Both the position numbers and the translations under genes were made by a program. Below, in pieces: positions 2,451 to 50,890 of a stretch of 50,890 nt of DNA (position 1 is the first letter of the stretch; every line of letters begins with the position of its first letter). The stretch covers positions 1-50,890 of the IMG/VR virus record IMGVR_UViG_3300009509_000071. One strand, given 5' to 3'. The DNA is from a virus (lineage: Duplodnaviria > Caudoviricetes). A model generated the notes under the pieces. The model was not told the DNA's origin. It made no database searches and worked only from the letters and a program-made list of their open reading frames with translations.

Positions 2451-2718
2451 GTGATACAATAAGTGATATATTTTTTCAACAAATATAACATTTGAAGCTA
2501 TACAGTGCCTAGATGGAATAGTGCGAAGTTCTCACTGTCCGCCAGCGATCTATCTCATACAATCTCATAAAGACTCACAAAGCCCTAAAACAAGGCACTT
2601 AAAGCAAATTAACCATCTTATTCAATGTCATATTATTGCATACAATCGCACACTTTAAGTGATACGATAAGTGATATGGTGTAAAATTATCACAAGAATA
2701 TCACTTGAAAGGTATCAC
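2447..2718. mobile_element. attP region: core CTCACTGTCCGCCA (2531-2544) flanked by integrase arm-type repeats
   Basis: The core looks like a tRNA 3' end (tRNA-Ser-like, ends CCA). TTAAGTGATAC(A/G)ATAAGTGATAT occurs at 2447-2469 and 2655-2677, with inverted TATCAC copies just before int. Confidence 0.8.
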
Positions 2719-3906
2719 ATGGCAAAAGTAAAACCACTCAATGATCGTCAAATAAAAACAGCTGCAGCGCAAGAAAAAGAGTATAAGCTTGCAGATGGAG
2801 ATGGCCTATATTTACACATAAAGCCAAATGGATCAAAGCTTTGGCGCTTTAGGTATATGCTTAACGGAAAACTTGCAATGATGTCTCTTGGTAAGTACCC
2901 AGATGTTACCATAGCTGATGCAAGAAAAAAGAGATCATCGTTAAGAGAATTGGTTGCAAGTGGAGAAAGCCCAATAGCAAAAAAGAGAGAGAGAAAAGGA
3001 ATGACTTTCTCTGATCTTGCAGATGAGTATTTTAATCATAGAGTAGATCTTAAAGATACATATATCAGAGACAACAAGGCATATCTGAAAAACCATTGGT
3101 ATCCAATCCTTGAGAATATGATACTGGATACTATTGAAGCAATACATATAATAAGATGCATAGAGAGGATAGAGAAGCATGGCGCAGTAACCATAGCAAA
3201 AAAGACTGGATCATTGATAGATAGAATTTTTAGATATGGAGTAACAAAGCAATATATGAAATATAATCCAATGAGAGATATTGACTTGTCTGTAATTGTA
3301 AAGCCTCATACTCCAAAAAATTATGCCCATATTACTGATGAAAACATACTTAAGCATCTACTTAAGGATATGGAAAATTATGTAGGTGATATAGTCACTA
3401 GGACTGCATTGCGGCTTATGCCATATGTATTTGTAAGGCCATCTGAAATAAGGGGCATGCTATGGAGTGAAATAGACTTCAAGAAAAAGATATGGTTTAT
3501 TCCAGCAGAAAGAATGAAAATGAAAAGGGATCACATAGTTCCATTAACTGAAAGTATGATCAATATAATAAATGTCATGAAAGACAATGGAAGTGACTTT
3601 GTATTTCCATCGCCACAGACAACAGTAAGGCAGCTCAGTGAAAACACTCTAAATGTAGGGCTAAAAAGACTTGGATATGAGGGCATTATGACTTCTCATG
3701 GCTTTAGGCATACAGCATCTACTTTTTTGCATGAGAATATGCATGTTCATGGAGTTCATAGCGATGCTATAGAAATTCAAATGGCGCATGTTGAAAAAAA
3801 CAATGTCAAAGGAGTGTATAATAAAGCTATATATATTGAAGAAAGAATTAGGCTTATGAAGTGGTGGAGCGATTACTTAGATGCATTAAAAGCATCCAAG
3901 CAATAA
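2719..3906 (+). CDS. int: Tyrosine integrase (P4/IntA-like with N-terminal arm-binding domain)
   Basis: DGDGLYL..KPNGSKLW arm domain; catalytic R (VRPSE), HGFRH, H (MAH) and Y (VYN). Start taken at ATG 2719. Confidence 0.96.
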   Translation: MAKVKPLNDRQIKTAAAQEKEYKLADGDGLYLHIKPNGSKLWRFRYMLNGKLAMMSLGKYPDVTIADARKKRSSLRELVASGESPIAKKRERKGMTFSDLADEYFNHRVDLKDTYIRDNKAYLKNHWYPILENMILDTIEAIHIIRCIERIEKHGAVTIAKKTGSLIDRIFRYGVTKQYMKYNPMRDIDLSVIVKPHTPKNYAHITDENILKHLLKDMENYVGDIVTRTALRLMPYVFVRPSEIRGMLWSEIDFKKKIWFIPAERMKMKRDHIVPLTESMINIINVMKDNGSDFVFPSPQTTVRQLSENTLNVGLKRLGYEGIMTSHGFRHTASTFLHENMHVHGVHSDAIEIQMAHVEKNNVKGVYNKAIYIEERIRLMKWWSDYLDALKASKQ

Positions 3907-9098: not shown

Positions 9099-9578
9099 TT
9101 ATGCATGCAAAACATATCTAAGCCTCCTAGAATTTACAGGCGCTTTCAGTTTTGACTTAGCCATATCCTCAATCTGTCTCACCCTCTCTCTAGTGATACC
9201 AAAAATATTTCCTATCTCTTCAAGCGTATAGCATCCATCAGCATGACTTCCAGTGTATGCACTGATCTCTTCATAAAGTTTCTTCTTGTTTAATGCCCTT
9301 ACATATTCGGCCTCAAGTTCAAGCTGTCTAGCCCATGCTCTTATTGCTGGATCATTATCTTTTTTTAGTTTTGTGATTGTTCTCATTGCAAGTAGGTGAG
9401 CATTTATCCTTGCCAGCTCCTCATTAAACACTTTGTATTTAATTCTGTCATCTTTTGGCTTTCTACTATTGTGAAGTCTAGCTTTTGCGTTTTCGCTTTT
9501 GATTTTATTTCTTTCTTTCATGACTTGTTCATTTATAAATTGAACATACTCAAACTCATTAATATCCAGTATTACCAT
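9099..9578 (-). CDS. Sigma-70 region 4 HTH domain protein
   Basis: YTLEEIGNIFGITRERVRQIE..A..KL matches RpoD region 4.2. Confidence 0.85.
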   Translation of the reverse strand: MVILDINEFEYVQFINEQVMKERNKIKSENAKARLHNSRKPKDDRIKYKVFNEELARINAHLLAMRTITKLKKDNDPAIRAWARQLELEAEYVRALNKKKLYEEISAYTGSHADGCYTLEEIGNIFGITRERVRQIEDMAKSKLKAPVNSRRLRYVLHA

Positions 9579-10776: not shown

Positions 10777-11376
10777 TTAAAACTGTATTTCTGCAGCGAC
10801 AACTCTACTCATCTCAAGTTTCTTGTCCGTATCCCAAGAGATGAATAGTGGATCAGTGTCTGGGTTATCACCTATAAGTACAATAGTTCTTTTATCAGCA
10901 GATAATCTGTATCTTCTGATCCCATTCTGATCGCCATAGCTATAATGCACAATATCTCCCTCTGCAATTTTAGCATGAGGGTTACATATACAAGTAGCAC
11001 ATGGCTGTATCGTAGGTGTCATCGCATTTCCGCACAGTATAATTCCGTACACATCATCCCCTAAAAATGGCCTCTCAATATGAGGTAAGCCATCTGTTAG
11101 TAATGGCATCGACGGTACAGCAGACTCATCACTTCTACCAATAATGTAGATAGCTTGCATCTTTTGTGCATCCTCTGCTTCTCCTATTAGAAATTTTGGG
11201 TTTACATCCAGCACATCAGAGATAGGGTATAGATACTTTGTAGGTACTTTCTCTCTATCAAACCACGCCTGTAATGTAGTTGTGTTCACTCCCAATGCTC
11301 TGGCCAGATCTACTTTCTTTAAACCTGACTCATCGAAACACGAATTGAAAATATCAAATTTTATCTCTGCTGCCAC
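10777..11376 (-). CDS. CI-like repressor (HTH plus S24-like domain)
   Basis: N-terminal HTH 'KKVDLARALGVNTTTLQAWF', C-terminal 'CGNAMTP...LIGDNP'; divergent from a cro-like gene. Confidence 0.88.
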   Translation of the reverse strand: MAAEIKFDIFNSCFDESGLKKVDLARALGVNTTTLQAWFDREKVPTKYLYPISDVLDVNPKFLIGEAEDAQKMQAIYIIGRSDESAVPSMPLLTDGLPHIERPFLGDDVYGIILCGNAMTPTIQPCATCICNPHAKIAEGDIVHYSYGDQNGIRRYRLSADKRTIVLIGDNPDTDPLFISWDTDKKLEMSRVVAAEIQF

Positions 11377-16270: not shown

Positions 16271-16625
16271 AACAAAAGGGAAAACTGGAGAGCGAGAAGT
16301 TGTAAATATGCTCAAGGATGCTGGGTTTGATGCCGCAAGAAACTTGGATCAGGTAAGGGATGGCGGCCATGACATAGTTGGGATTAGTAATGTTGCAATA
16401 GAAGTAAAAAGATCTAAAGTTCTTCTATTGAGTAAATGGTGGACTCAGACTGTAAAACAGGCTGGAGATGATAAGTTCCCAGTGCTTGCATATAGGCTTG
16501 ACAGGCAAAAATGGAAAGTAGTGGTAACTTCTGATTTCCTATCCAAAGATTTACCCAGATCGATCACATTAACTCTGGAATGGGATGATTTCATATATTA
16601 TTTAAGAGAGGTTATAGATGGCTGA
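16257..16625 (+). CDS. PD-(D/E)XK Holliday junction resolvase-like nuclease
   Basis: SRTKGKTGERE, GHDI...IEVKR and WWTQ motifs. Confidence 0.75.
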   Translation: MVNSRTKGKTGEREVVNMLKDAGFDAARNLDQVRDGGHDIVGISNVAIEVKRSKVLLLSKWWTQTVKQAGDDKFPVLAYRLDRQKWKVVVTSDFLSKDLPRSITLTLEWDDFIYYLREVIDG

Positions 16626-18171
16626 CAAGTATTGCCCTAAGTGCAGCAGCACTTCAATGACAAAACTAAAAGATACTGCTCAAAGTGGAAAGTATCGATG
16701 GAGATGCAGAGACTGCAAGCATAGAACTACAAATCCGCATACTAAGCATCCATCTCATCAATCTGGCCTCAATATAAAAGACATACAATCCAAAACACTT
16801 GTAGTAACTAGCGCAATGGCAAATACAGACACGCATCAGGAAACACTTGGAGTTATTCTTAATTACTGTAGCCACAATGATGCGCAACTACTTGTAATCC
16901 CAGTAAAGTACAGAAATAGAGACAATATAAACATCCAGAATGATGAGCCTTTGACATATGATGATGCACTTGAGCCATATCTTTTGCGTAAAAATTATAA
17001 GGTAAACAAAAATCTTACTATCTTTGCAGAAAGATCGATCAACGCAACAAGAAAGAGGCCTTTGACATCTAAAGAAAATCTAGCAAAAGAGAGCAGTGGG
17101 ATCTTCGCACATGCCAATATGTGCATGCAAGTAATCGCTACAGTGAAAGATAAAATTCCAAAGATACTCCATACTACAGGAAGCATATCTGTACCAAACT
17201 ATTCAGACAGTGATCTTGGAGATGATGCAAGACTTAATCATACACTTGGAGCAGTAGTTGTTGAAGTATATGGAGATCTTTTTTTCATGAGACAACTAAT
17301 GGTTAAAAATGGCGTACTTTACGATCTTACTACAAAATATACTGGAAACTCTGTAGAGTCTGCAAGGCCAGAACATATATCATATGGAGACACGCATCAT
17401 AAGCTGATCACAAAAGAAGAGTATGATGCCATCTGGGGCAAAAATGGAATTTACAACATACTAAAACCTAAGCAGCAAATATTTAATGACATCCTAGATT
17501 TTTATGCAGACAATCACCATCATAATTCTGATCCACTGCTGCAGTACATGAAAACCATAAACGGAGATGAGTGCATCGAGACTGAGCTGCAAGAAGTTGT
17601 TAAGTTCCTAGATGATGTAGGCGGTGGAGTTATAGTTCCAAGTAACCATAATGATCATTTGACTCAGTGGGTAAACAAGGCCTTAAAGAATGGAATATCA
17701 AACACTGTATCACATAAGAATATGCCGATCATGGCAGAACTTGTATCGATGGCAACTTCTCACATCTCAGAACATGGCGAGTACCCAAATATACTAAACT
17801 TGTATCTCAAAAAGCACTGCAAAAGTAAACTGATATTCCCTAGTAGAAACCAAGAGTACAGGCCAGTATATTGTGACTTGAGCCAGCATGGAGACAAGGG
17901 AGCAAATGGAGCAAAAGGATCGCCATATGCATTTTTGAAGAGTGGAGTTCCTACTACTCATGGCCATTGCCATTCACCATACATTATAAATGGATTTGAT
18001 GGAGTCTGGGCTACTGGAGTTACTACAAAGAATATGAATTATGCAAGTGGATTAAGTGGATGGCTTTATGCTCACATAACAGAGTATGAGAATGGCCAGA
18101 GACAAATGATCATCATGATCAAGAATAGGTTTAGGCCTCCAAGCAAAATGCCTAAAAAAAGGCAATCTTGA
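16618..18171 (+). CDS. Zn-ribbon plus metallophosphoesterase, T5 A1-like
   Basis: CPKC...CRDC; VVTSA; HTTG.IS..NY; GDTH, SNHNDH, HGDKGANGAKGS and GHCHSP. Confidence 0.7.
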   Translation: MADKYCPKCSSTSMTKLKDTAQSGKYRWRCRDCKHRTTNPHTKHPSHQSGLNIKDIQSKTLVVTSAMANTDTHQETLGVILNYCSHNDAQLLVIPVKYRNRDNINIQNDEPLTYDDALEPYLLRKNYKVNKNLTIFAERSINATRKRPLTSKENLAKESSGIFAHANMCMQVIATVKDKIPKILHTTGSISVPNYSDSDLGDDARLNHTLGAVVVEVYGDLFFMRQLMVKNGVLYDLTTKYTGNSVESARPEHISYGDTHHKLITKEEYDAIWGKNGIYNILKPKQQIFNDILDFYADNHHHNSDPLLQYMKTINGDECIETELQEVVKFLDDVGGGVIVPSNHNDHLTQWVNKALKNGISNTVSHKNMPIMAELVSMATSHISEHGEYPNILNLYLKKHCKSKLIFPSRNQEYRPVYCDLSQHGDKGANGAKGSPYAFLKSGVPTTHGHCHSPYIINGFDGVWATGVTTKNMNYASGLSGWLYAHITEYENGQRQMIIMIKNRFRPPSKMPKKRQS

Positions 18172-18187
18172 GGCCACTATTGAATTT

Positions 18188-18430
18188 TTACAGACACTCA
18201 AATATGTATAGCGGATGGTATCTCTTTGTTACATAGCTATATTCTTGAGTAGATGTGATAATATGAAGCTTTTTGTCTCCATCTAGCTTACATTGTTGTG
18301 ATGCATTGCTAATATCCATTGCCTCATATATTCCACTTCCTTTTCTGTACACATAATTTGCAAGTGTAGGATCACTATTTACACATCCTGTAAAAAACAA
18401 TACTGCAGCAGCTACTATCAACTTTTTCAT
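18188..18430 (-). CDS. Small lipoprotein
   Basis: MKK plus hydrophobic core and FTGC lipobox. Confidence 0.75.
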   Translation of the reverse strand: MKKLIVAAAVLFFTGCVNSDPTLANYVYRKGSGIYEAMDISNASQQCKLDGDKKLHIITSTQEYSYVTKRYHPLYIFECL

Positions 18431-21059: not shown

Positions 21060-21275
21060 CTACTCACCAAGCCTTTCTTTAAGATAATCTATTTTTTCCT
21101 GTAACTCATCTGTATCATTATCAAGTATATTCTCAAGCAGTCTCAGCATACTTTTTTCATCATCTCTGGCAATATTATCACTCCAAGCAGCTCCAAGTAA
21201 GTCTCTTAGCTGCTCCATTTTTTCTACAGTTCTGTAATCTAAATCTATATATGACATCCTGTATCCTTTATGCAA
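21060..21275 (-). CDS. Small acidic helical protein (likely start near 21257)
   Basis: AAGGA SD before MSYIDL. Confidence 0.6.
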   Translation of the reverse strand: MHKGYRMSYIDLDYRTVEKMEQLRDLLGAAWSDNIARDDEKSMLRLLENILDNDTDELQEKIDYLKERLGE

Positions 21276-22557
21276 TTTTCTTTGATTTACTGATCATCTT
21301 GCTAAGTGTATCTTTTTTCACTGCAGCATTTGCAATATGGAATTTTTCAAGTTCAGCCTTAAGCGCATCGATCTCTGCTTTCAACTCTGCTATCTCTGCA
21401 TCTTTTGATTTAATAATAGCATCCTTATTTACTCTTTTTGCCTTTGGCTTTGCCTCACTATATTCAAACGATGATCTATTTTCATTCATACTGAAACTGA
21501 TCTCATCGTATCTATGATGATCATCACCACTATGGTTAAGAATTATAGGCATAATAATCGTCTTAGCTCCATTTGATTTATTGATAAGCATTATAGGTAC
21601 ATTATTTCCATTAAAATGCATCTCAATCTTATTTTCAATGATCGCATCTGAGATATATTTTGCATTAATAGCGAATTTGAAAGGAACTTTTGCGCTATAG
21701 CTACACTCAATCGATGTTTTAGCTCCATTTTCAAGCGACTTTATCTCCATAAGCCCATCATGCATAGTGATCTCGATCTCTTCATATCCCTTTAGCGTAT
21801 CTTGCAGCTTAAGCCCATTTGCCATAACTGTAAATTTATTGCCTAAAGGAACGATCCTGTTTACATCTGGGTATCTACCATAAATAAGCCTCGATCTCTT
21901 CTGTATTCCATCTAATTTAAAATGAGCTATATGATCCTTATCAGATATTTTAAGATCAGTAAGTACGCTACCTTTTTTCAATGCATCCTTTGGAATAATA
22001 ATATCTCCAATATCAGCAGCATCGATCTTGCTTATTGCTAATCGTCTCGTATCTGTAGATGCGATCTGGCCATCTTTAAAGCTAACATAAAGCCCATTTA
22101 ATTCAAATTTAGGATTATTCTTATCTATAGTATCATATATAGCAGTATCCACTAATATCTCACCATCATAGCTAACAATATCATCACTATCAAAATCCAA
22201 GTTTACACGCTCTATATCGCTATCTTTGGCTATATAGTAATCCATAACGATACTACCATTTTCAGAAACTATCTTTACCTTTCCAGCAACATCGATATTT
22301 AGTATAAATTCAACATGATCACCTTTGGCCGCATCTATGAATTTTTTAAACTCTTTAAAGTTTACATCAAAAGAGATCGATGCAGTAGCATCAAATTCAA
22401 CCTCAGTATAAGTCTCTCCATTGCATGTGATAAGCTTAACGCCACTATCAGTTTTTTCAAAAAATAGGTATGCTGCCATCTGGCTTTGATCCTTTTTTTC
22501 AACACTTGCAGCTAATTCTTTTAACGCCTTTTTTAATTCCATTGTACCTAGTATCAT
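21268..22557 (-). CDS. DNA polymerase III beta sliding clamp-like protein with C-terminal coiled coil
   Basis: NNPKFELNGLY, ASTDTRRLA, IIIPK, YGRYPDVNRIVP, INAKYI.D and IIMPI motifs. Confidence 0.85.
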   Translation of the reverse strand: MILGTMELKKALKELAASVEKKDQSQMAAYLFFEKTDSGVKLITCNGETYTEVEFDATASISFDVNFKEFKKFIDAAKGDHVEFILNIDVAGKVKIVSENGSIVMDYYIAKDSDIERVNLDFDSDDIVSYDGEILVDTAIYDTIDKNNPKFELNGLYVSFKDGQIASTDTRRLAISKIDAADIGDIIIPKDALKKGSVLTDLKISDKDHIAHFKLDGIQKRSRLIYGRYPDVNRIVPLGNKFTVMANGLKLQDTLKGYEEIEITMHDGLMEIKSLENGAKTSIECSYSAKVPFKFAINAKYISDAIIENKIEMHFNGNNVPIMLINKSNGAKTIIMPIILNHSGDDHHRYDEISFSMNENRSSFEYSEAKPKAKRVNKDAIIKSKDAEIAELKAEIDALKAELEKFHIANAAVKKDTLSKMISKSKKIA

Positions 22558-22563
22558 TTTTTA

Positions 22564-22635
22564 TCCTTTAAATTTTATTTTTAAGTGTGATAAGCACTTA
22601 ATAAGAGACTCCATAAAGTCTCCTATAATTGCTCA
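22564..22635 (-). repeat. Structured intergenic element, copy 8 (directly after a promoter)
   Basis: GAGCAATTA-TAGGAGACT/AGTCTCTTA-T-TAAGTG..CACTTAA..AAAGGA. Confidence 0.8.
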
Positions 22636-22644
22636 TGTATGCAC

Positions 22645-22674
22645 ATTGTACACAAAATGTGAATTAAATGTCAA
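22645..22674 (-). promoter_or_regulatory. Sigma-70 promoter with operator, upstream of the clamp gene
   Basis: TTGACA-18 bp-TACAAT; the spacer contains CACAAAATGTG, as in pL. Confidence 0.75.
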
Positions 22675-22700
22675 TACCTTTTATGCAATTTGTGATCTTT

Positions 22701-22886
22701 TTAATAAATTTGCTCCATATCCTCAGTCTCATGATCCATTTTTTCATACATTTTACTCTCATCATCACTGCAAAAATCATCACGCCAATTATCCTTATCT
22801 AGTACATCAACGGATACATTTTCATCGTTACTATATACCGCCTGTACTAATCCGCCATCTATAACTATTATAATTTTGCTCATCAC
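22701..22886 (-). CDS. Small acidic protein
   Basis: 'KIIIVIDGGLVQAVYS...VDVLD.D'. Confidence 0.7.
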   Translation of the reverse strand: MMSKIIIVIDGGLVQAVYSNDENVSVDVLDKDNWRDDFCSDDESKMYEKMDHETEDMEQIY

Positions 22887-22895
22887 TTATCCTTT

Positions 22896-23045
22896 TTATC
22901 TTAAGCAATTATGCTCATTTACTAGCTGCACTATGCTCCTAGCAGCGCCTATGATCTTATCTGTATTAACTAATCTCAATTCCCACTTATCTGTATCGTT
23001 ATTGAATTTTAGATATACATCATCCCTATATACTGTATCCATCAT
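22896..23045 (-). CDS. Hypothetical protein (49 aa)
   Basis: MMDTVYRDDVYLKFNN...; follows the SD of an element copy. Confidence 0.6.
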   Translation of the reverse strand: MMDTVYRDDVYLKFNNDTDKWELRLVNTDKIIGAARSIVQLVNEHNCLR

Positions 23046-23048
23046 TTA

Positions 23049-23121
23049 TCCTTTATTGTAAATTTAAGTGAAAAATCACTTAATAAAGCCCACTATGTAA
23101 AAATAGGCTTTATAAATGATT
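23049..23121 (-). repeat. Structured intergenic element, copy 7
   Basis: AATCATTTA-TAAAGCCTA/TGGGCTTTA-T-TAAGTGATT..TCACTTAA..AAAGGA. Confidence 0.85.
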
Positions 23122-23620
23122 ACATGCTCTCCAGTGAATAATCTCCCAGCTGGCCATCTGTACCTATTTCATAGTGAATATAGTTATAGTCTCCCAGTAA
23201 GCTTTTTTTGTCATCATCTTTGATTACATGCACGCCTACATATGCATAGCATGATGGCCTAAAATCGATCCTTATCTCAGCTACTACAGTGATATTTAAG
23301 AGATCACCTATTAAGCCCATATCAGCCCCATTACAGATAAATGATCCAGTATATATGCCGCCATCCTCATGTGGATTATAAATATAATCTGTACTGAGAT
23401 CACATTTTAATTCACTCTCTATACTCTCTTTTATGTTATTTACATAATCCTCTAATACTTTAAAATCATCTAAATATAATTTTTCAGCTATCTCATCAAT
23501 CATGAGATTATAAAAAGTCTCTATATCCATCTCACTATCATTATTTACGATCTTTACAAAATTATCATAACTAATGATCCCAGCCTCTACATTTTCTTTT
23601 AATTTTTCATAATTAATCAT
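23120..23620 (-). CDS. Acidic hypothetical protein
   Basis: D/E-rich, 166 aa. Confidence 0.75.
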   Translation of the reverse strand: MINYEKLKENVEAGIISYDNFVKIVNNDSEMDIETFYNLMIDEIAEKLYLDDFKVLEDYVNNIKESIESELKCDLSTDYIYNPHEDGGIYTGSFICNGADMGLIGDLLNITVVAEIRIDFRPSCYAYVGVHVIKDDDKKSLLGDYNYIHYEIGTDGQLGDYSLESM

Positions 23621-23626
23621 CTTTGA

Positions 23627-23702
23627 TCCTTTAATTTTTAATTTTAAGTATTTGATAAATACTCAATAATGGCCTCACTAAAGGCCACTATGAATATTTT
23701 TA
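23627..23702 (-). repeat. Structured intergenic element, copy 6
   Basis: AAATATTCA-TAGTGGCC/GGCCATTA-T-TGAGTATTT..AAATACTTAA..AAAGGA. Confidence 0.9.
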
Positions 23703-23948
23703 ATCCTGATTATCCCAGCAGCTAAAACATCTCTTTGAGATAATTGATCCATCCTCATCCTCATAATTTTCCTTATAATCCTCATACCACTCATCTATAT
23801 CTCTAAACTCCCAGCTATTAACAAAATCTAATATATCCTCTTTAGTAAGATCACCTCTATTTTTACTAATAAAATCAGATACATCCTCATTAAAGCACCA
23901 CTTAAGATCAGTCTTATAATCCTCTTTAATCTCATTTGTATAATCCAT
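23700..23948 (-). CDS. Very acidic small protein
   Basis: 'DIDEWYEDYKENYEDEDG'. Confidence 0.75.
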   Translation of the reverse strand: MDYTNEIKEDYKTDLKWCFNEDVSDFISKNRGDLTKEDILDFVNSWEFRDIDEWYEDYKENYEDEDGSIISKRCFSCWDNQD

Positions 23949-23949
23949 C

Positions 23950-24147
23950 TTAATTTCCTTTATTCACTAAATTGTTATATATCTCTAATCCATTTTCACT
24001 AAGCGTATCTACATCTAAAAAAGGGCTGGGCTTAAAATATTTTAATATCCCAGATAATCTCATATATTCTATACTACTTTGGCCACTATGATAATCTCTA
24101 AAATAAAGATAATATGCCTCTACAATATCCCATCTATCAAAATACAT
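23950..24147 (-). CDS. Hypothetical protein
   Basis: 'MYFDRWDIVEAYYLY..DYH.GQ.S..Y.RLS'. Confidence 0.75.
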   Translation of the reverse strand: MYFDRWDIVEAYYLYFRDYHSGQSSIEYMRLSGILKYFKPSPFLDVDTLSENGLEIYNNLVNKGN

Positions 24148-24148
24148 C

Positions 24149-24535
24149 TTATACCGCCTCTATGATCTTATTTTCTGGTAAAGTACGCCCATTACGCTTA
24201 TGATTAATCAAGCGCCCTATATGAATAATATCCGCTGCATAATCTGTATTGATCCCATAATGATCAGAAAATTTTTCTACAGTAAGAAAATTATTAAAAT
24301 AATCCAGATAATAATCCTCAGTATTACAGGCTATTATGTTATTTAGTACGCTTAATACCTTTATATCATCAAAATGATCCAGTATAGTCTCTATGGCCTC
24401 TACTATCGAATATTTTTTGTTATACTCAAGCACATAAGATAAGCTACTGATCAGATATTGATCATCAAATGATACATGATCCCCAGTGTAGCTATATTCT
24501 ATCCCACTATATTTTTTTGTTATATATTGCAGCAT
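24149..24535 (-). CDS. Hypothetical protein
   Basis: C-terminal 'YLDYFNNFLTVEKFSDHYGI....A..II..GR..H'. Confidence 0.75.
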   Translation of the reverse strand: MLQYITKKYSGIEYSYTGDHVSFDDQYLISSLSYVLEYNKKYSIVEAIETILDHFDDIKVLSVLNNIIACNTEDYYLDYFNNFLTVEKFSDHYGINTDYAADIIHIGRLINHKRNGRTLPENKIIEAV

Positions 24536-24540
24536 TTAAG

Positions 24541-24617
24541 CCCCTTTAATTTTTAAATTTGAATATTTGAAAAATACTCAAAAATGGGATCATAAAATCC
24601 CACTATGAATATTTTTA
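24541..24617 (-). repeat. Structured intergenic element, copy 5
   Basis: AAAATATTCA-TAGTGGGAT/ATCCCATTT-T-TGAGTATTTT..AAATATTCAA..AAAGGGG. Confidence 0.9.
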
Positions 24618-24884
24618 GATCATTTTTACGATAATTTTTCTATACTCATCCCCAGTCATACTCTTATTTATGATCCCTTTAATACTCTCTATTTGATCCC
24701 TTATTTGATCCAGTAACTTATACATATTATTTATATCTTTAGAAACGATATATCTAATCCCACTATGACTTTTTTCATGATCTTTTTTTTCACTCTCTAT
24801 AGCTGCATTAATAATTTTTCTTTTATGCATCTCTTCATCCACTAAATAACAATATGATCCTACTAATGATAATTTATCCATCAT
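24615..24884 (-). CDS. Hypothetical protein
   Basis: ORF whose stop lies in an element copy. Confidence 0.65.
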   Translation of the reverse strand: MMDKLSLVGSYCYLVDEEMHKRKIINAAIESEKKDHEKSHSGIRYIVSKDINNMYKLLDQIRDQIESIKGIINKSMTGDEYRKIIVKMI

Positions 24885-25051
24885 AAGCCCCTAAACTGCA
24901 AATTTGCATATTTATTTGTAAAGTATGCTATAGAGTGACTATGCCAAGCTATAGCCTTATTTTTATCATTTGTAACCACTGGATCATGTAAAGATGCATT
25001 ACTGCAAAAAACATATTGCCAAGCCCCATTTATAAACACTTGCATTTTCAT
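24881..25051 (-). CDS. Hypothetical protein (56 aa)
   Basis: MKMQVFINGAWQYVFC...; ATGA overlaps on both sides. Confidence 0.6.
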   Translation of the reverse strand: MKMQVFINGAWQYVFCSNASLHDPVVTNDKNKAIAWHSHSIAYFTNKYANLQFRGL

Positions 25052-25569
25052 AATAAGCCCCTTATTTGATCCACAAATAACCTACTATCTTTAAATGCAT
25101 TTACTCCTATATAATTTTCACTAACACTATCTATAAAGCTATACCAAAATTTATTTTCTACTATCGATACACTACAGATAACATCCTCTTTATTTATAGC
25201 CGCTGGGATCATTTTGTCTATTATTAGATAAATATTGCCTCTATATTTTAAGGCCTCTATAGATAGATCGTTACCATTAAAATTAAGATCACATTTGATC
25301 ATCTCTTTTTTACTCATGTTTTTAATTTTTTCAGTAGCTACAATATCTTTTAAAACTACAATAAAGCTATAAAAAACATTATCATCTTTATCTATCTCAT
25401 AGTCACTATTAAAGGCCTCTTTATTATCTTTATATTGACTATAAAGCCCCTCTATATAATCAATATAATTAATCTCATTTTTAAACAAATGAGTCTCTAT
25501 ATAATAACCATCCTCTATGATCTTATAAGCCCTTTTTTTACGATCCACTAATAAGCTATAATCTATCAT
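25048..25569 (-). CDS. Hypothetical protein
   Basis: 173-aa ORF following an element SD. Confidence 0.7.
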   Translation of the reverse strand: MIDYSLLVDRKKRAYKIIEDGYYIETHLFKNEINYIDYIEGLYSQYKDNKEAFNSDYEIDKDDNVFYSFIVVLKDIVATEKIKNMSKKEMIKCDLNFNGNDLSIEALKYRGNIYLIIDKMIPAAINKEDVICSVSIVENKFWYSFIDSVSENYIGVNAFKDSRLFVDQIRGLL

Positions 25570-25576
25570 TTTTAAT

Positions 25577-25649
25577 ACCTTTATGTTTAAATTTAAGCAT
25601 TTAATAAATACTTAATAATGGGCTTAATAAAGCCCACTATAAATATTTA
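25577..25649 (-). repeat. Structured intergenic element, copy 4
   Basis: TAAATATTTA-TAGTGGGCTT/AAGCCCATTA-T-TAAGTATTTA..AAATGCTTAA..AAAGGT. Confidence 0.9.
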
Positions 25650-25955
25650 TAGATAAATAATCTCATTTTGAAAAAAAGAGATAAATTCTATTTTTTCTTT
25701 ACGATCTGATCCATCCATATTGCAATAAAGATCAAGTGTAATTAATGCATTATTTTTATATACTTGCCAAGCATAAGCCCCTGTAATATAATTTTTTAGA
25801 TGATTAGATAAATATTTTTTAAGATCATAAATTGACTTTTTTATCTTATATTCATCTGAGATATTATTATTTAAAAATTCATAGATAATTACATCTTTAA
25901 ACATAAGCTTATTATCTTTAATTTTTAAGCCTTTATATATAGTCTGATCACTCAT
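25647..25955 (-). CDS. Hypothetical protein
   Basis: ORF lying between two element copies. Confidence 0.65.
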   Translation of the reverse strand: MSDQTIYKGLKIKDNKLMFKDVIIYEFLNNNISDEYKIKKSIYDLKKYLSNHLKNYITGAYAWQVYKNNALITLDLYCNMDGSDRKEKIEFISFFQNEIIYL

Positions 25956-25961
25956 TATGCA

Positions 25962-26035
25962 GCCTTTATTTTTAAATTTAAGTAACTAAAATTACTTAAT
26001 AAAGTGATCCTGATCGATCACTCTATAAATAATTA
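25962..26035 (-). repeat. Structured intergenic element, copy 3
   Basis: AATTATTTA-TAGAGTGATC/GATCACTTTA-T-TAAGTAATT..GTTACTTAA..AAAGG. Confidence 0.9.
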
Positions 26036-26212
26036 ATTTAATATGCTATGCTTTACAATATGATTATTATTAATAATCTCTATTTTAAGATCGTTTCTAT
26101 CTTTATTAATCATTTTTATATAGCCCTTTTTTAAATAGTCATTTAATAAGGCCGCCTTTACATGATCTAATATAACCTTATTTTTAAGGCCTTTAATACT
26201 TAATAAAGTCAT
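26033..26212 (-). CDS. Small basic protein (59 aa)
   Basis: MTLLSIKGLKNKVILDHVKAALLNDYLKKGYI...; AAGGGG SD; stop lies in an element. Confidence 0.55.
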   Translation of the reverse strand: MTLLSIKGLKNKVILDHVKAALLNDYLKKGYIKMINKDRNDLKIEIINNNHIVKHSILN

Positions 26213-26295
26213 TTTGATCCCCTTTTAAGATCGTTTATATCCTTGCAAGTAATGCAGCCCTTTTTTATGTAGTAATTTAATTGTATTAAAGTCAT
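26209..26295 (-). CDS. Peptide (28 aa)
   Basis: MTLIQLNYYIKKGCITCKDINDLKRGSK follows an element SD; ATGA overlap with the next ORF. Confidence 0.45.
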   Translation of the reverse strand: MTLIQLNYYIKKGCITCKDINDLKRGSK

Positions 26296-26300
26296 TTTGA

Positions 26301-26375
26301 TCCCTTTAAATTTTTAATTTAAGTATTTATTTAATACTTAATAAGAGGCTGCAGCCCAGCCCCATATAAATATTA
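26301..26375 (-). repeat. Structured intergenic element, copy 2
   Basis: TAATATTTA-TATGGGGCTG/CAGCCTCTTA-T-TAAGTATTA..AATACTTAA..AAAGGGA. Confidence 0.9.
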
Positions 26376-26567
26376 ATATTCACTAATCAAATTAAGATCA
26401 GTGATCCCCTCTTCATCATAATAATCCCAGCCTATAGAATATACATTTCCAGTAATGCTATATAATTTTTCACCATCTGGAGATATTGCATAATCATGTT
26501 TAGTCACTGCATAAACGATCCCATACGCTGCAGCATCTTTTTTGATCTGATCTTTTATTGCATCCAT
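26373..26567 (-). CDS. Small acidic protein
   Basis: 64 aa; stop lies in an element. Confidence 0.65.
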   Translation of the reverse strand: MDAIKDQIKKDAAAYGIVYAVTKHDYAISPDGEKLYSITGNVYSIGWDYYDEEGITDLNLISEY

Positions 26568-26569
26568 AC

Positions 26570-26686
26570 TTAAGCCCCTGTATTAATAAGAGTAATTATA
26601 AATGCAGCCGCTGCAGCTATAGAGATAATAAGCCCCATATTAAGAGGCGCTTTATTTTCTTTAGATAGATTAGAATAAGTGATCAT
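26570..26686 (-). CDS. Small membrane peptide (38 aa)
   Basis: MITYSNLSKENKAPLNMGLIISIAAAAAFIITLINTGA follows an element SD. Confidence 0.5.
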   Translation of the reverse strand: MITYSNLSKENKAPLNMGLIISIAAAAAFIITLINTGA

Positions 26687-26690
26687 TTGA

Positions 26691-26769
26691 TCCCCTTTAA
26701 TTTTAAATTTAAGTCACTGTAAATAAGCGCTTAATAAAGGGCTACAATATAGCCCTCTATAAATGCTTA
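26691..26769 (-). repeat. Structured intergenic element, copy 1
   Basis: TAAGCATTTA-TAGAGGGCTA/TAGCCCTTTA-T-TAAGCGCTTA..GTGACTTAA..AAAGGGG. Confidence 0.88.
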
Positions 26770-27066
26770 AAATGCCTGTATAATAAAGGCCTCTTTATTT
26801 ACTGGTATTAAGATCGTATTATTTTCTATATCCTCTAAAGTCTCATACTCTTCACCATACTCAGACTGAAACGCCTCTAAATTATCATACTCAGTAAAGT
26901 CACAACATAGCGCTATAACATCTAACTCCATTTGTGTATCTGATCCCTCTTCATACTCTTCGATCCAAGCAAATAAAGCCTTTAATCCCTCATAAGAAAA
27001 TTGATCCCCACGCCCCATATTATTAAATGCCTGTATAAAGTCATACTCATTAACTGTATTTATCAT
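26767..27066 (-). CDS. Highly acidic protein, first gene of the leftward array (DNA-mimic/anti-restriction candidate)
   Basis: 'FSYEGLKALF..IEEYEE....ELDVIALCCDFTEY'; roughly a quarter of residues are D/E. Confidence 0.8.
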   Translation of the reverse strand: MINTVNEYDFIQAFNNMGRGDQFSYEGLKALFAWIEEYEEGSDTQMELDVIALCCDFTEYDNLEAFQSEYGEEYETLEDIENNTILIPVNKEAFIIQAF

Positions 27067-27124
27067 TTGTTACCCTTTAAATGTTTAATTTGATCAAGTG
27101 ATCATCATCTCTTAATCTATATAT

Positions 27125-27172
27125 ATTATAGTACAATTTGTGTATAAAGTCAATAGTTTATATACAATTTGT
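27125..27172 (-). promoter_or_regulatory. Strong sigma-70 promoter with two operator copies driving the leftward array
   Basis: TTGACT-17 bp-TATAAT; TACAATTTGTGTATAAA occurs twice (~27132 and ~27163). Confidence 0.85.
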
Positions 27173-27219
27173 GTATAAAATATGATCTTTTTTTTACAAT
27201 ATGCAAGTATAAAAAATAT

Positions 27220-27340
27220 CTCATGATCATCTGATCCCATCCCATCCCATCCCAGCCGCTGCAGCATCATCCCAGCATCTGAGAGGATCACGCCCAGCCC
27301 ATCCAAGCCGCTGCAGCATCCAAGCATATGCAGCCCACTG
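27220..27340. repeat. C-rich short-repeat tract beside cos
   Basis: Tandem (ATCCC)n, AGCCGCTGCAGCATC twice and CATCCAAGC twice. Confidence 0.7.
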
Positions 27341-27348
27341 GATTAAAA

Positions 27349-27396
27349 AGGTACTGTCCAGCGTTTTTCAAGGCCACAGGGATCAGCGTAGCCCCG
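27349..27396 (+). other. Candidate cos site (cosQ-like plus cosN-like)
   Basis: AGGTACT starts 30 nt before GGGATCAGCGTA, the same spacing as lambda GGGTCCT to GGGCGGCGACCT; upstream of terS and gpA. Confidence 0.6.
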
Positions 27397-27588
27397 ATTT
27401 CTTTGTCTCGTTCATGTTTTTTTGCGGTTATCCACACCGATATAGAAATTCGCCCATATATATACTATATATGCGATCCATAATTATCTTGATATTTGGC
27501 ATATTTATCATGAACTTTAGTACACCATGTTATAACTAGTTGTAAAATACAAAAAATAAGGAACTATAGTTCACTTTTTCATAAAATA

Positions 27589-27597
27589 TGCTATAAT
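27589..27597 (+). promoter_or_regulatory. Extended -10 promoter, leaderless
   Basis: TGcTATAAT lies 6 nt before ATG 27604. Confidence 0.6.
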
Positions 27598-27603
27598 CAC
27601 CGC

Positions 27604-27819
27604 ATGAAATCCACAAAAAGTCTTACAACTACAAAGATTATTGCAAAAAGCTTTGGTAGTACACCCAGAAACATTCATAAGACATACAAGGCAAAAAAGC
27701 CAAACTCATTTCGTGTTCTGGAAGTGGGATCTTACATGATGGAACATAATGTCACAAATGAAGAGATCGAGGCGGCAGTAGATTTTATACTCAAGATGAG
27801 GGAGATATATGGCAAGTAA
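27604..27819 (+). CDS. Small basic putative DNA-binding protein
   Basis: 'KIIAKSFGSTPRNIHK' is HTH-like. Confidence 0.6.
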   Translation: MKSTKSLTTTKIIAKSFGSTPRNIHKTYKAKKPNSFRVLEVGSYMMEHNVTNEEIEAAVDFILKMREIYGK

Positions 27820-50684: not shown

Positions 50685-50890
50685 TATTTGGAAATCATGT
50701 TTTTGATGATGATAAAATAAAGCCAATAGTGCAAGATGGTCTTGTTTTGCATCTTGACTCTGGAAACCCACTATCTTATTCTGGTACTGGATTAACTTGG
50801 TATGATTTAAGCCCTTATGGGCATGATTTTACACTTGATGCAGTTGGAATATACTTCAATGCAAATACTGGTGTGTTTGATTTATTTGAT
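50681..50890 (+). CDS. 5' part of the LamG-domain protein, continuing into 2..1213
   Basis: MIFGNHVF...IVQDGLVLHLDSGNPLSYSGTG. Confidence 0.8.
   Translation, partial: MIFGNHVFDDDKIKPIVQDGLVLHLDSGNPLSYSGTGLTWYDLSPYGHDFTLDAVGIYFNANTGVFDLFD
50752..50890. repeat. Terminal direct repeat, copy 2
   Basis: Identical to 1-139. Confidence 0.97.

Follow-up and report, generated by a model that had tools for sequence, protein, structure and literature searches.

We analysed a stretch of 50,890 bases (IMG/VR record IMGVR_UViG_3300009509_000071, hereafter the window), which is the complete, circularly assembled genome of a phage from a marine sediment metagenome, with a terminal repeat at 1-139 and 50752-50890. 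The gene content is that of a temperate, tailed phage. A minus-strand operon of this genome, running from a promoter named P1 down to about position 18190, carries eight copies of one element, seven of them between genes and the eighth in the leader of a gene with its own promoter, P2. The eight copies are likely intercistronic RNA elements, specific to the sense strand, and not DNA sites. They probably act as a signal to the host, by which messenger RNA is cut, stabilised or coupled. The element is a structured RNA motif absent from Rfam (no match at gathering score over the whole window, and none at E<=1 over 22500-27200), and it belongs in kind to the intercistronic processing and stability hairpins. 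Its built-in alternative fold, its anchoring to stop codons and its sharing between hosts and several phage types are unusual. No description of the motif was found in the literature, where the searches were aimed at analogues and not at the motif itself.

Read 5' to 3' on the minus strand, the element is composed of arm A, the sequence AUAG, an inner stem-loop, UUA, a bulged U, arm B, a loop and arm C, in this order. The inner stem-loop is G+C-rich and differs in sequence in every copy. Arm B consists of UAAG or UGAG plus 5-7 variable bases, the loop between arms B and C is 3-7 nt in length, and arm C ends with CUUAA or UUCAA. Downstream of arm C are found AAUUUAAAAAUU, then AAAGG as the Shine-Dalgarno (SD) sequence, 5-7 nt, and the ATG; the stretch common to the copies is AAAUUUAAAAAUUAAAGG. 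The upstream stop codon is located within arm A or abuts it in all seven copies that have an upstream open reading frame (ORF). The remaining one, copy 8, begins about 2 nt past the start site predicted for P2, and no ORF precedes it in the P2 transcript. A first-pass annotation of the same DNA had reported this anatomy, including the seven copies at stop codons and the eighth behind a promoter, and all its parts could be read directly in the copies. It had also placed a copy at each of the eight sites; all are present, and the positions it gave are the low-coordinate edges of the copies, beside the start codons.

For comparison of the copies we used a covariance model, R1, which was built from the copies themselves and describes the inner stem and the B:C pairing without A:B; the bit scores of the copies refer to this model. 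All copies lie on the minus strand. Copy 1 (26684..26775, core 26708-26769; 82.3 bits) stretches from the stop codon of a 99-aa gene to the ATG at 26686, and copy 2 (26293..26382, core 26318-26375; 87.1 bits) leads to the ATG at 26295. Copy 3 is at 25953..26041 (core 25977-26035; 73.6 bits) and copy 4 at 25567..25655 (core 25592-25649; 89.4 bits), the latter with a long hairpin of 21 pairs and one bulge. Copy 5 (24533..24621, core 24558-24617; 84.7 bits) carries a UUCA/UGAG variant that is matched in arms A, B and C. The highest score, 92.4 bits, was obtained for copy 6 (23618..23706, core 23643-23702), and the lowest, 63.5 bits, for copy 7 (23043..23128, core 23063-23122), whose inner stem is shifted and made up of 12 pairs, including two of U.G. 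Copy 8 (22555..22641, core 22580-22637; 80.9 bits) forms the 5' leader of a sliding-clamp gene; its arm A has a different sequence and retains the pairing with arm B. A repeat search tied the copies together independently of any model (families D1, D2, D5, D7, D11 and D13). When the rest of the phage was scanned with R1, nothing above 22.4 bits was found. The weak matches were the leaders of the 99-aa gene (22.4 bits, 27064-27127) and of a lipoprotein gene (18430), where only the AU-rich spacer and the SD part of the element are present, and the end of the operon. It was also observed that copy 4 (5' arm and loop, 25610-25640) and copy 7 (3' arm and box B, 23080-23100) share an 18-nt string, AUAGUGGGCUUUAUUAAG; in copy 7 other upstream sequence supplies the pairing partner of this string, as if the hairpin had been rebuilt after a deletion.

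The positions of the copies coincide with the spacing of the genes. The stretch from 27066 to 21060 contains 17 ORFs, the fourth taken with a corrected start at 26295, and consequently 16 junctions, of which seven are gaps of 74-80 nt, one is a gap of 143 nt and eight measure -8 to +12 nt. Each of the 74-80 nt gaps is one element copy, extending from stop codon to start codon, and the 143-nt gap is made up of promoter P2 and the eighth copy. None of the eight tight junctions contains a copy.

Two competing folds can be drawn for the element. In the first, pairing of arm A with arm B extends the inner stem to a long hairpin of 19-22 pairs with one bulge; in the second, the inner stem stands alone and arms B and C form a separate hairpin of 7-10 pairs. 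The difference in energy between the two folds is 0.5-4.2 kcal/mol, and the long fold is favoured in five of the eight copies and the two-hairpin fold in three. All copies are more stable than their shuffled versions, with z values from -2.7 to -4.8 and 0-2 of 200 shuffles equally stable. In both folds the SD sequence is unpaired in most copies.

To what extent these pairings are preserved was analysed in an alignment of the eight copies, named A1. For the inner stem plus A:B, 96.0% of 151 cells are paired and 11 of 19 pairs have changed on both sides; for the inner stem plus B:C the corresponding values are 95.3% of 148 cells and 9 of 19 pairs. When the partner strand was slid by 1-3 columns, pairing fell to 29-52%. 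Covariation in A:B and in B:C had been set beforehand as the check on the proposal that arm B serves two partners, and it was found in both, with none of 500 shuffles matching the observed pairing or covariation score for either fold; as the copies are paralogues of one genome and the shuffle control ignores their kinship, these statistics are inflated. The changes in arm B are mirrored in arms A and C alike: at columns 18/51/72, the UA/AU pairs have become CG/GC in copy 5. The claims of the first-pass annotation that pairing is kept where the sequence changes, TTCA/TGAG included, and that arm B can pair with either neighbour, are borne out by these compensatory changes, by those of the larger alignment described below and by the small difference in energy between the two folds.

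Most of the pairing imperfections are G-U pairs, as the first-pass annotation had pointed out. In A1 a G.U pair is found at columns 22/46 in six of the eight copies and a U.G pair at columns 16/53 in seven. The minimum free energy of the sense strand is 5.8-11.7 kcal/mol more stable than that of the antisense strand in all eight copies. Since the G-U pairs let the sense strand fold better than its complement, an RNA structure is likely, and a site in double-stranded DNA or a bidirectional terminator is unlikely.

To look for relatives outside the phage, we searched with DNA patterns made from the three conserved boxes (AUAG, UUAUURAG and CUUAAA), and every matching locus was scored with R1. 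The patterns matched at least 114, 15 and 11 viral stretches, 100 genome stretches and at least 119 metagenome stretches; every pattern locus held a single match and nearly all of them were due to chance. Among the matches listed, those convincing after scoring were L233/L213, L246, L219, L220 and L354, and L286 and L208 were doubtful. The hairpins in the convincing loci are extra evidence, because the patterns did not demand hairpins. The copy in L246 is located on a 1.8-kb contig of small genes and scores 57.5 bits with R1, and L354 is likewise a small-gene contig. L233 is a fragment of a Mu-like phage with the copy placed between the MuA- and MuB-like genes, and the same copy is present in L213, a contig of a Sulfurovum metagenome-assembled genome (MAG); a second copy in L233, after the endolysin gene, was found without any pattern. 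The copies in L220 (6377-6442) and L219 (1656-1721) are at orthologous host loci, between bacA and a DEAD-box helicase gene in whose leader they lie; one locus belongs to a Sulfurovum MAG and the other to a MAG labelled Arcobacter nitrofigilis. These two copies differ in their loops only, plus one C-to-U change that keeps a G.U pair. A DEAD-box RNA helicase of that kind is the partner of RNase J in Helicobacter.

The cores of the eight window copies and of six outside sequences, 14 cores from five independent sources, were aligned with MAFFT to give alignment A4. In the long hairpin, 96.2% of 261 cells are paired and 13 of 19 pairs have changed on both sides. The covariation score of 0.665 was reached by none of 500 shuffles, for which the value is 0.187, and slid partners pair in 38-51% of cells. 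For the six outside sequences alone, 53 of 56 A:B cells and 54 of 54 inner-stem cells are paired. The A:B pairing outside the phage is an independent test, because A:B is not part of the R1 model by which these sequences were scored. A B:C hairpin of 7-10 pairs is present in 13 of the 14 sequences. At the conserved heart of the family, 5'-UUUAUAG pairs with UUA(U)UAAG (UUAUUAAG) in a box of 7 bp whose bulged U is invariant (column U46 of A4). The box is flanked by wobble pairs, U.G at columns 12/50 in 13 of 14 sequences and G.U at columns 18/43 in 12 of 14.

We then built a second covariance model, R2, on the long fold. At a rough E-value of E<=0.05 it matched 8 of 151 sampled Campylobacterota genomes and 1 of 151 Clostridia genomes. 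Six of the eight Campylobacterota matches look like members of the family and the other two are plain terminators. The six are L395, placed after a Mu Gam-like gene and having behind the element the same SD context as window copy 8; L394, before the DUF3164 gene of Mu-like prophages; L396, before a 57-aa membrane protein that reads by eye as an inovirus-type coat protein; L398, in a host operon between metE and an MTHFR-like gene, where the SD follows directly after arm B; and L397 and L399. L395 and L397 represent a sub-type in which UUUAACAAG ... UUUGAUUAAG replaces UUUAUAG ... UUAUUAAG. Further members were seen in a prophage of Halarcobacter (L390) and in one of four viral records with a distant clamp, a provirus; in the other three of these records and in the Nitratiruptor phage NrS-4, R2 found nothing. 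In 151 Campylobacterota genomes R1 gave a single match, a plain bidirectional terminator with a ribosome site (41 bits). As host genomes carry about one copy each, the eight copies of the phage represent an expansion. In 13 of 16 members with a recognisable stop codon, host loci included, the stop codon is 7-11 nt ahead of AUAG (read by eye), most often 9 nt.

Sequencing runs were compared with the window as well. Among the runs listed as containing the sequence, none was of RNA. In the run that is the probable source, contig breaks fall at copies 3 and 4, giving pieces that correspond to 25439-25617, 25594-25937 and 25921-27807. In three DNA contig runs no joints were seen, only short matches of about 80-85%; two runs of the same study other than the source run gave such matches, many of them at element positions. 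These matches give a hint that other phages of the habitat have elements of this kind.

As to function, we tentatively favour a site of mRNA stabilisation and of processing by a host enzyme of the RNase III type, in which the 3' arm refolds to give a 5' hairpin that protects the RNA; to this reading we give somewhat less than an even chance, with the steps after folding inferred. According to it, arm A, which holds the upstream stop codon, would fold first together with the inner stem and arm B, because arm C is transcribed last, into a hairpin of about 20 bp around the 7-bp box. The hairpin would then be recognised by a host nuclease specific for double strands, with RNase III the most likely candidate, and cut in or near the box, and the upstream message would be left ending in a stable hairpin. 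The freed arm B could pair with arm C, and the downstream message would start with a hairpin of 7-10 bp that shields it from the 5'-to-3' exonuclease RNase J. The unstructured A/U-rich spacer and the SD following B:C would keep the ribosome site open, whatever gene lies upstream.

Several observations are in favour of this reading. Unrelated phages and the host operons of one lineage use an element with identical box, bulge and geometry, so that its reader is most likely a factor of the host. The covariation of both pairings and the strand specificity of the fold count in favour too, as do the members within host operons and the early operons of Mu-like prophages and the enrichment of the family in Campylobacterota over Clostridia. 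Five Campylobacterota genomes with a family member agree with the first-pass annotation, which had named RNase III and RNase J as nucleases of this phylum: RNase III is encoded in all five, RNase J in four and RNase E/G in none. No RNase III domain was found in the phage proteins, and a phage-encoded RNase III was rejected as a candidate. Copy 8 keeps A:B and B:C without a preceding ORF, which argues that the pairings are not merely a by-product of upstream translation. As described in the available text on T7 RNase III sites, the helix ends of such sites vary around an irregular middle and a 12-bp stem suffices, and irregular stems lead to a single-strand cut and to maturation and protection of the mRNAs (PMC8708148). 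In organisms with RNase J, long downstream RNA is stabilised when its 5' end carries a hairpin or a ribosome site (PMC3997798).

Other observations count against the processing site. RNase III has, to our knowledge, no strong consensus, and the likeness of the element to its substrates is weak evidence for that reason. At L233 9101-9148, L398 and L394 there is no convincing arm C, so the step forming the 5' hairpin is not universal. All but one of the six outside sequences in A4 had first come up through a DNA pattern, by which the conservation of the boxes and the outer five B:C pairs were partly imposed, and the E-values of the short-calibrated models are rough. Finally, the regular distance of the stop codon is not needed by a cleavage model and fits better with a switch operated by ribosomes.

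Such a switch is the first of the alternatives, possible and on balance unlikely. A ribosome terminating in arm A would open A:B, spare the inner stem and let B:C form, thereby coupling the downstream cistron to translation of the upstream one; the two folds might differ in the sensitivity of the long duplex to nuclease or in the access of the next ribosome to its site. A ribosome covers about 10 nt downstream of its A-site codon, a distance that matches arm A as far as the inner stem and favours the switch. The location of the stop codon, inside or at the base of arm A in all seven window copies concerned and within the narrow distance seen in 13 of 16 members, speaks for it, as does the energy gap of 0.5-4.2 kcal/mol, which is as expected for a switch. 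In L398, moreover, the SD directly after arm B means that the base of the hairpin brings stop and start together. What is missing is a visible mechanism of simple masking, for in most copies neither fold pairs the SD. The position of the stop codon may reflect nothing else than compaction, and both pairings are retained in copy 8, which no ORF precedes in the P2 transcript, where read-through from upstream is possible. We consider unlikely the combined form of these ideas, a lineage-wide RNA device of Campylobacterota and their phages, hitherto undescribed: a stop-anchored two-state 'toggle' in which the terminating ribosome that opens A:B competes with a double-strand nuclease, so that survival and translation of a cistron would be set by translation of the one upstream.

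It is decidedly unlikely that the element is a leaky intrinsic terminator and 3'-end protector, in which the inner stem and UUAUU would create a gradient of expression along the operon, arm A would pair with the tail, and B:C would be mere leader. All copies do have 4-5 U within 8 nt of the G+C-rich inner stem, if counted from the inner stem alone, but a scan requiring five T in eight after the full stem calls none of the eight, since the U-run is interrupted and paired with arm A. The 41-bit score that R1 gives to a plain bidirectional host terminator with a ribosome site, and the related structure at the operon end (18130-18200), fit a terminator; so does the report that PeSL stem-loops of T4-like phages, in the same position, terminate transcription, as far as the available text of that report goes (PMC2839356). 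Against this, copy 8 lies in a 5' leader, and members are found within the MetE/MTHFR and MuA/MuB operons, in which a stop of transcription would leave the downstream gene silent. Also unexplained by a terminator are the covariation of the distal A:B pairs, at least 10 nt past the stem, and of B:C, and the conserved wobbles and bulge.

An improbable reading is that of a mobile cassette resembling the PeSLs, with a terminator, a promoter and about 90 bp of shared sequence acting as homologous recombination site for the swapping of blocks of 1-3 genes. The layout of stop codon, stem-loop, A/T-rich stretch, SD and start with orphan genes on the flanks is indeed the one given in the accessible parts of the PeSL reports (PMC2839356; PMC4122927). 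The array has a lower G+C content than the rest of the genome and encodes mostly orphan proteins, and the phage has a RecT and a PDDEXK exonuclease which could recombine copies. Traces of rearrangement (the SD/start string present twice, at 26295 and 26212, and the 18-nt string of copies 4 and 7) and the breaks of the source-run contigs at copies may be added. However, the promoter scan calls no promoter within the elements; the best hexamers (TTATTA ... TAAATT) are 14-20 nt apart and the start would hit the SD. A promoter or recombination role would leave the covariation, the G-U pairs and the strand specificity unexplained, and family members stand single in host operons. The cassette-like array proposed in the first-pass annotation stands insofar as gene blocks are split by the copies, and does not stand as a private device of the array, for the wider family also occurs between larger genes of Mu-like prophages and in host operons. 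This wider occurrence argues for a host reader and against a cassette-specific recombination site. Recombination between copies is possible as a side effect alongside an RNA role.

A DNA site for a protein, either the operator of a dimeric repressor or a recombinase core such as the folded strand of an integron attC, is scarcely credible. Arms B and C do form an inverted repeat, the phage has a tyrosine integrase, and attC sites show a bulged base in their folded single strand. The half-sites, however, are 9-17 nt apart among the copies, the inner parts vary yet stay complementary, G-U pairs become A-C mismatches on the other strand, and members also reside in host operons. Integron attC sites carry R boxes, GTTRRRY/RYYYAAC; none of these was seen by eye in the copies, and there is no integron integrase beside the array. 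The sole integrase found in the phage, of the phage type, is encoded at 2671-3906, 19 kb from the array.

A number of simpler candidates were tried and rejected: a promoter inside the element, in view of the variable hexamer spacing; masking of the SD by arm C, which has no complementarity to it, the SD being open in both folds; an operator or recombinase core site, in view of variable spacing, covariation and G-U pairs; and a CRISPR or miniature inverted-repeat transposable element, which does not agree with the single orientation and the fixed register to start codons.

Among known systems, the early region of phage T7 has several RNase III sites between its genes. The element has a layout of the T7 type, with a conserved irregular middle between freely varying ends and with 19-22 pairs and one bulge in the copies, which lie in seven gaps between gene blocks and in one leader. 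Like the element, the T7 early sites (e.g. R1.1) are described in the available text as irregular hairpins of about 20 bp between cistrons of one phage transcript (PMC8708148). The comparison with T7 made in the first-pass annotation is valid as an analogy in layout and fails as a statement of membership: there is no relation in sequence or in Rfam, and the nearest phages by terminase are not T7-like. The irregularity of the element is a single bulged U between two G.U pairs, that of the T7 sites an internal loop. The element further differs by its competing B:C hairpin, by the stop codon inside the helix and by its copies in host operons, and the host here has RNase J and lacks RNase E; cleavage of the element itself is inferred.

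The PeSLs are, in the accessible text, repeats of about 100 bp that reach from stop to start and contain a stem-loop, an A/T-rich stretch and an SD, like the element (PMC2839356; PMC4122927). They flank orphan genes in a plastic region and have been proposed, in the same partial text, to make genes portable (PMC2839356; PMC4122927). According to what is available of these reports, PeSLs possess a consensus sigma-70 promoter, unlike the eight copies, in which the scan found none, and no two competing covarying helices or strand-specific G-U pairs are reported in that text.

The SAS and ESAS of Cluster K mycobacteriophages resemble the element in that a motif including the ribosome site precedes many starts in one orientation, with function unknown according to the part of the source consulted (PMC3203893). 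The same text states that an imperfect inverted repeat with a variable spacer precedes about half of the SAS (PMC3203893). The 13-bp SAS, GGGATAGGAGCCC, given there is unrelated to the element and absent from its copies; the half-sites of ESAS are conserved in sequence, suggesting protein binding, whereas the arms of the element covary; and alternative pairing and stop-codon anchoring are not described in the available text (PMC3203893).

The element can also be compared with stabilisers in cellular operons. Intercistronic and 5' stabilisers, ermC among them, are hairpins that, like the element, give transcript segments different lifetimes, as stated in the source (PMC3997798). In contrast to the element, the operon stabilisers are single hairpins without a conserved box or an alternative fold and do not form one family of host and phage. 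Known cases include the REP elements, the puf operon hairpins, B. subtilis cggR-gapA and the aprE leader. The proposed refolding of arm B is paralleled by the hok mRNA of hok/sok, in which loss of one pairing partner leads to refolding into the active form. The trigger there is 3' exonucleolytic trimming of a single toxin mRNA, unlike in the element; hok is no intercistronic repeat family and its sequence is unrelated.

The two promoters of the operon each match the consensus at 11 of 12 positions in the promoter scan, and both are on the minus strand. P1 (27125..27153) has TTGACT and TATAAT separated by 17 nt, and P2 (22645..22674), ahead of the clamp gene, has TTGACA and TACAAT separated by 18 nt. 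The spacer of P1 holds a near-palindrome, TACACAAATTGTA, and P2 a palindrome, CACATTTTGTG, which is similar to it; judged by this similarity, the two look like operators of one repressor governing both promoters. A 17-mer, TACAATTTGTGTATAAA, is present twice, at 27131-27147 and 27163-27179. Upstream, where the array operon and the terminase genes diverge, there is a G+C-rich direct repeat of 28 nt, 93% identical (27241-27268 and 27293-27320), which is possibly a packaging or replication site.

The first gene of the operon (26767..27066, minus strand, as are all the following) encodes an acidic protein of 99 aa belonging to phrog_9974, of unknown function. Behind it the copies separate seven gene blocks. 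Block 1 (26373..26686) consists of ORFs of 38 and 64 aa, 2 nt apart. Block 2 (26033..26295) is a 28-codon ORF overlapping a 59-aa ORF by ATGA. Both ORFs of block 2 (26295-26209, and start at 26212) begin with MTL and are preceded by the same SD/start string of about 22 nt, and this duplicated string looks like the leftover of a rearrangement. Block 3 (25647..25955) is a single ORF of 102 aa; block 4 (24615..25569) contains ORFs of 173, 56 and 89 aa with successive 4-nt overlaps; and block 5 (23700..24535) consists of three ORFs (128, 65 and 82 aa) separated by 1 nt each. Block 6 (23120..23620) is one ORF of 166 aa, and block 7 (22701..23045) comprises an ORF of 49 aa and, 12 nt further on, one of 60 aa with its own SD. 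The gene behind copy 8 (21268..22557) encodes a DnaN-like sliding clamp of 429 aa (phrog_947, 8.4e-26; PF02767).

At the end of the operon (18130..18200, minus strand) a sequence resembling arm A, AAAAAUUCAAUAG, is followed by a long composite hairpin (19.2 bits with R1). Similar to arm A with the AUAG box, this structure has no arms B and C; another small hairpin is nested in the long one, and the whole faces the end of a plus-strand gene (16618-18171). It may be a degenerate relative of the element or a terminator.

The G+C content of the array (22558-27066) is 28.7% (0.27-0.31), compared with about 0.34-0.41 elsewhere in the genome; as percentages, 36-39% was obtained for the remainder. Its proteins have nearly no family matches in Pfam and PHROGs; no paralogues were found within the array and no homologues in 396 fetched loci. 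GATC is over-represented. In the array there are 59 sites, where trinucleotides predict 28 and base composition 10; genome-wide there are 361 sites against 308 and 171, respectively. Several of the GATC sites fall within the stretch from SD to start (AAAGGGGATCAAATG).

Elsewhere the phage encodes an S24-type repressor (10777-11376), a dUTPase, an IstB-like loader and an SSB besides the RecT and the PDDEXK exonuclease, and its structural and packaging genes include small and large terminase, portal, protease, tape measure and fibres; no tRNA genes were found in the genome. A protein of 159 aa (9099-9578, minus strand) contains a sigma-70 region-4 domain (3.7e-09) and may, going by this domain, be a small phage sigma factor or transcription regulator.

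The host of the phage is probably a member of the Campylobacterota, because all named cellular relatives of its clamp are Campylobacterota DnaN proteins (Sulfurimonas, Sulfurovum, Arcobacter and their kin, about 28-30% identity), with which the host guess of the first-pass annotation agrees. The clamp relatives P0002-P0007 are 38-47% identical, and those in IMG/VR only 27-34%. No close relative of the phage was found by DNA, clamp and terminase searches. Against 50,697 phage records, blastn of 21200-27200 gave no match, nor did tblastn of the clamp against phage records; at E<=1e-35 the clamp matched none of 401 Campylobacterota genomes. For the large terminase there was no pattern match in IMG/VR; the best match was 31.6% identical among phage records (a Thiohalocapsa phage, with Nitratiruptor phages at 27%) and 29% in the 401 Campylobacterota genomes.

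Bacillus excepted, mRNA processing has been poorly mapped in bacteria that lack RNase E and use RNase J and RNase III, and in environmental Campylobacterota it has scarcely been mapped at all; a conserved motif that can be searched for offers a concrete substrate for that question. If the element were merely a terminator-like hairpin with a conserved leader, it would be ordinary. Should the toggle exist, a unit read by the host and reaching from stop to start would be a portable insulator, with which Mu-like and lambdoid phages exchange small genes without re-tuning their expression; for engineering, a cistron-insulating unit of 60-90 nt would be directly useful. If the motif marks the points at which polycistronic RNA is cut, protected or coupled, it could be used to find more such sites, and it would show a temperate phage keeping a row of unrelated small genes evenly expressed by means of a signal borrowed from its host.

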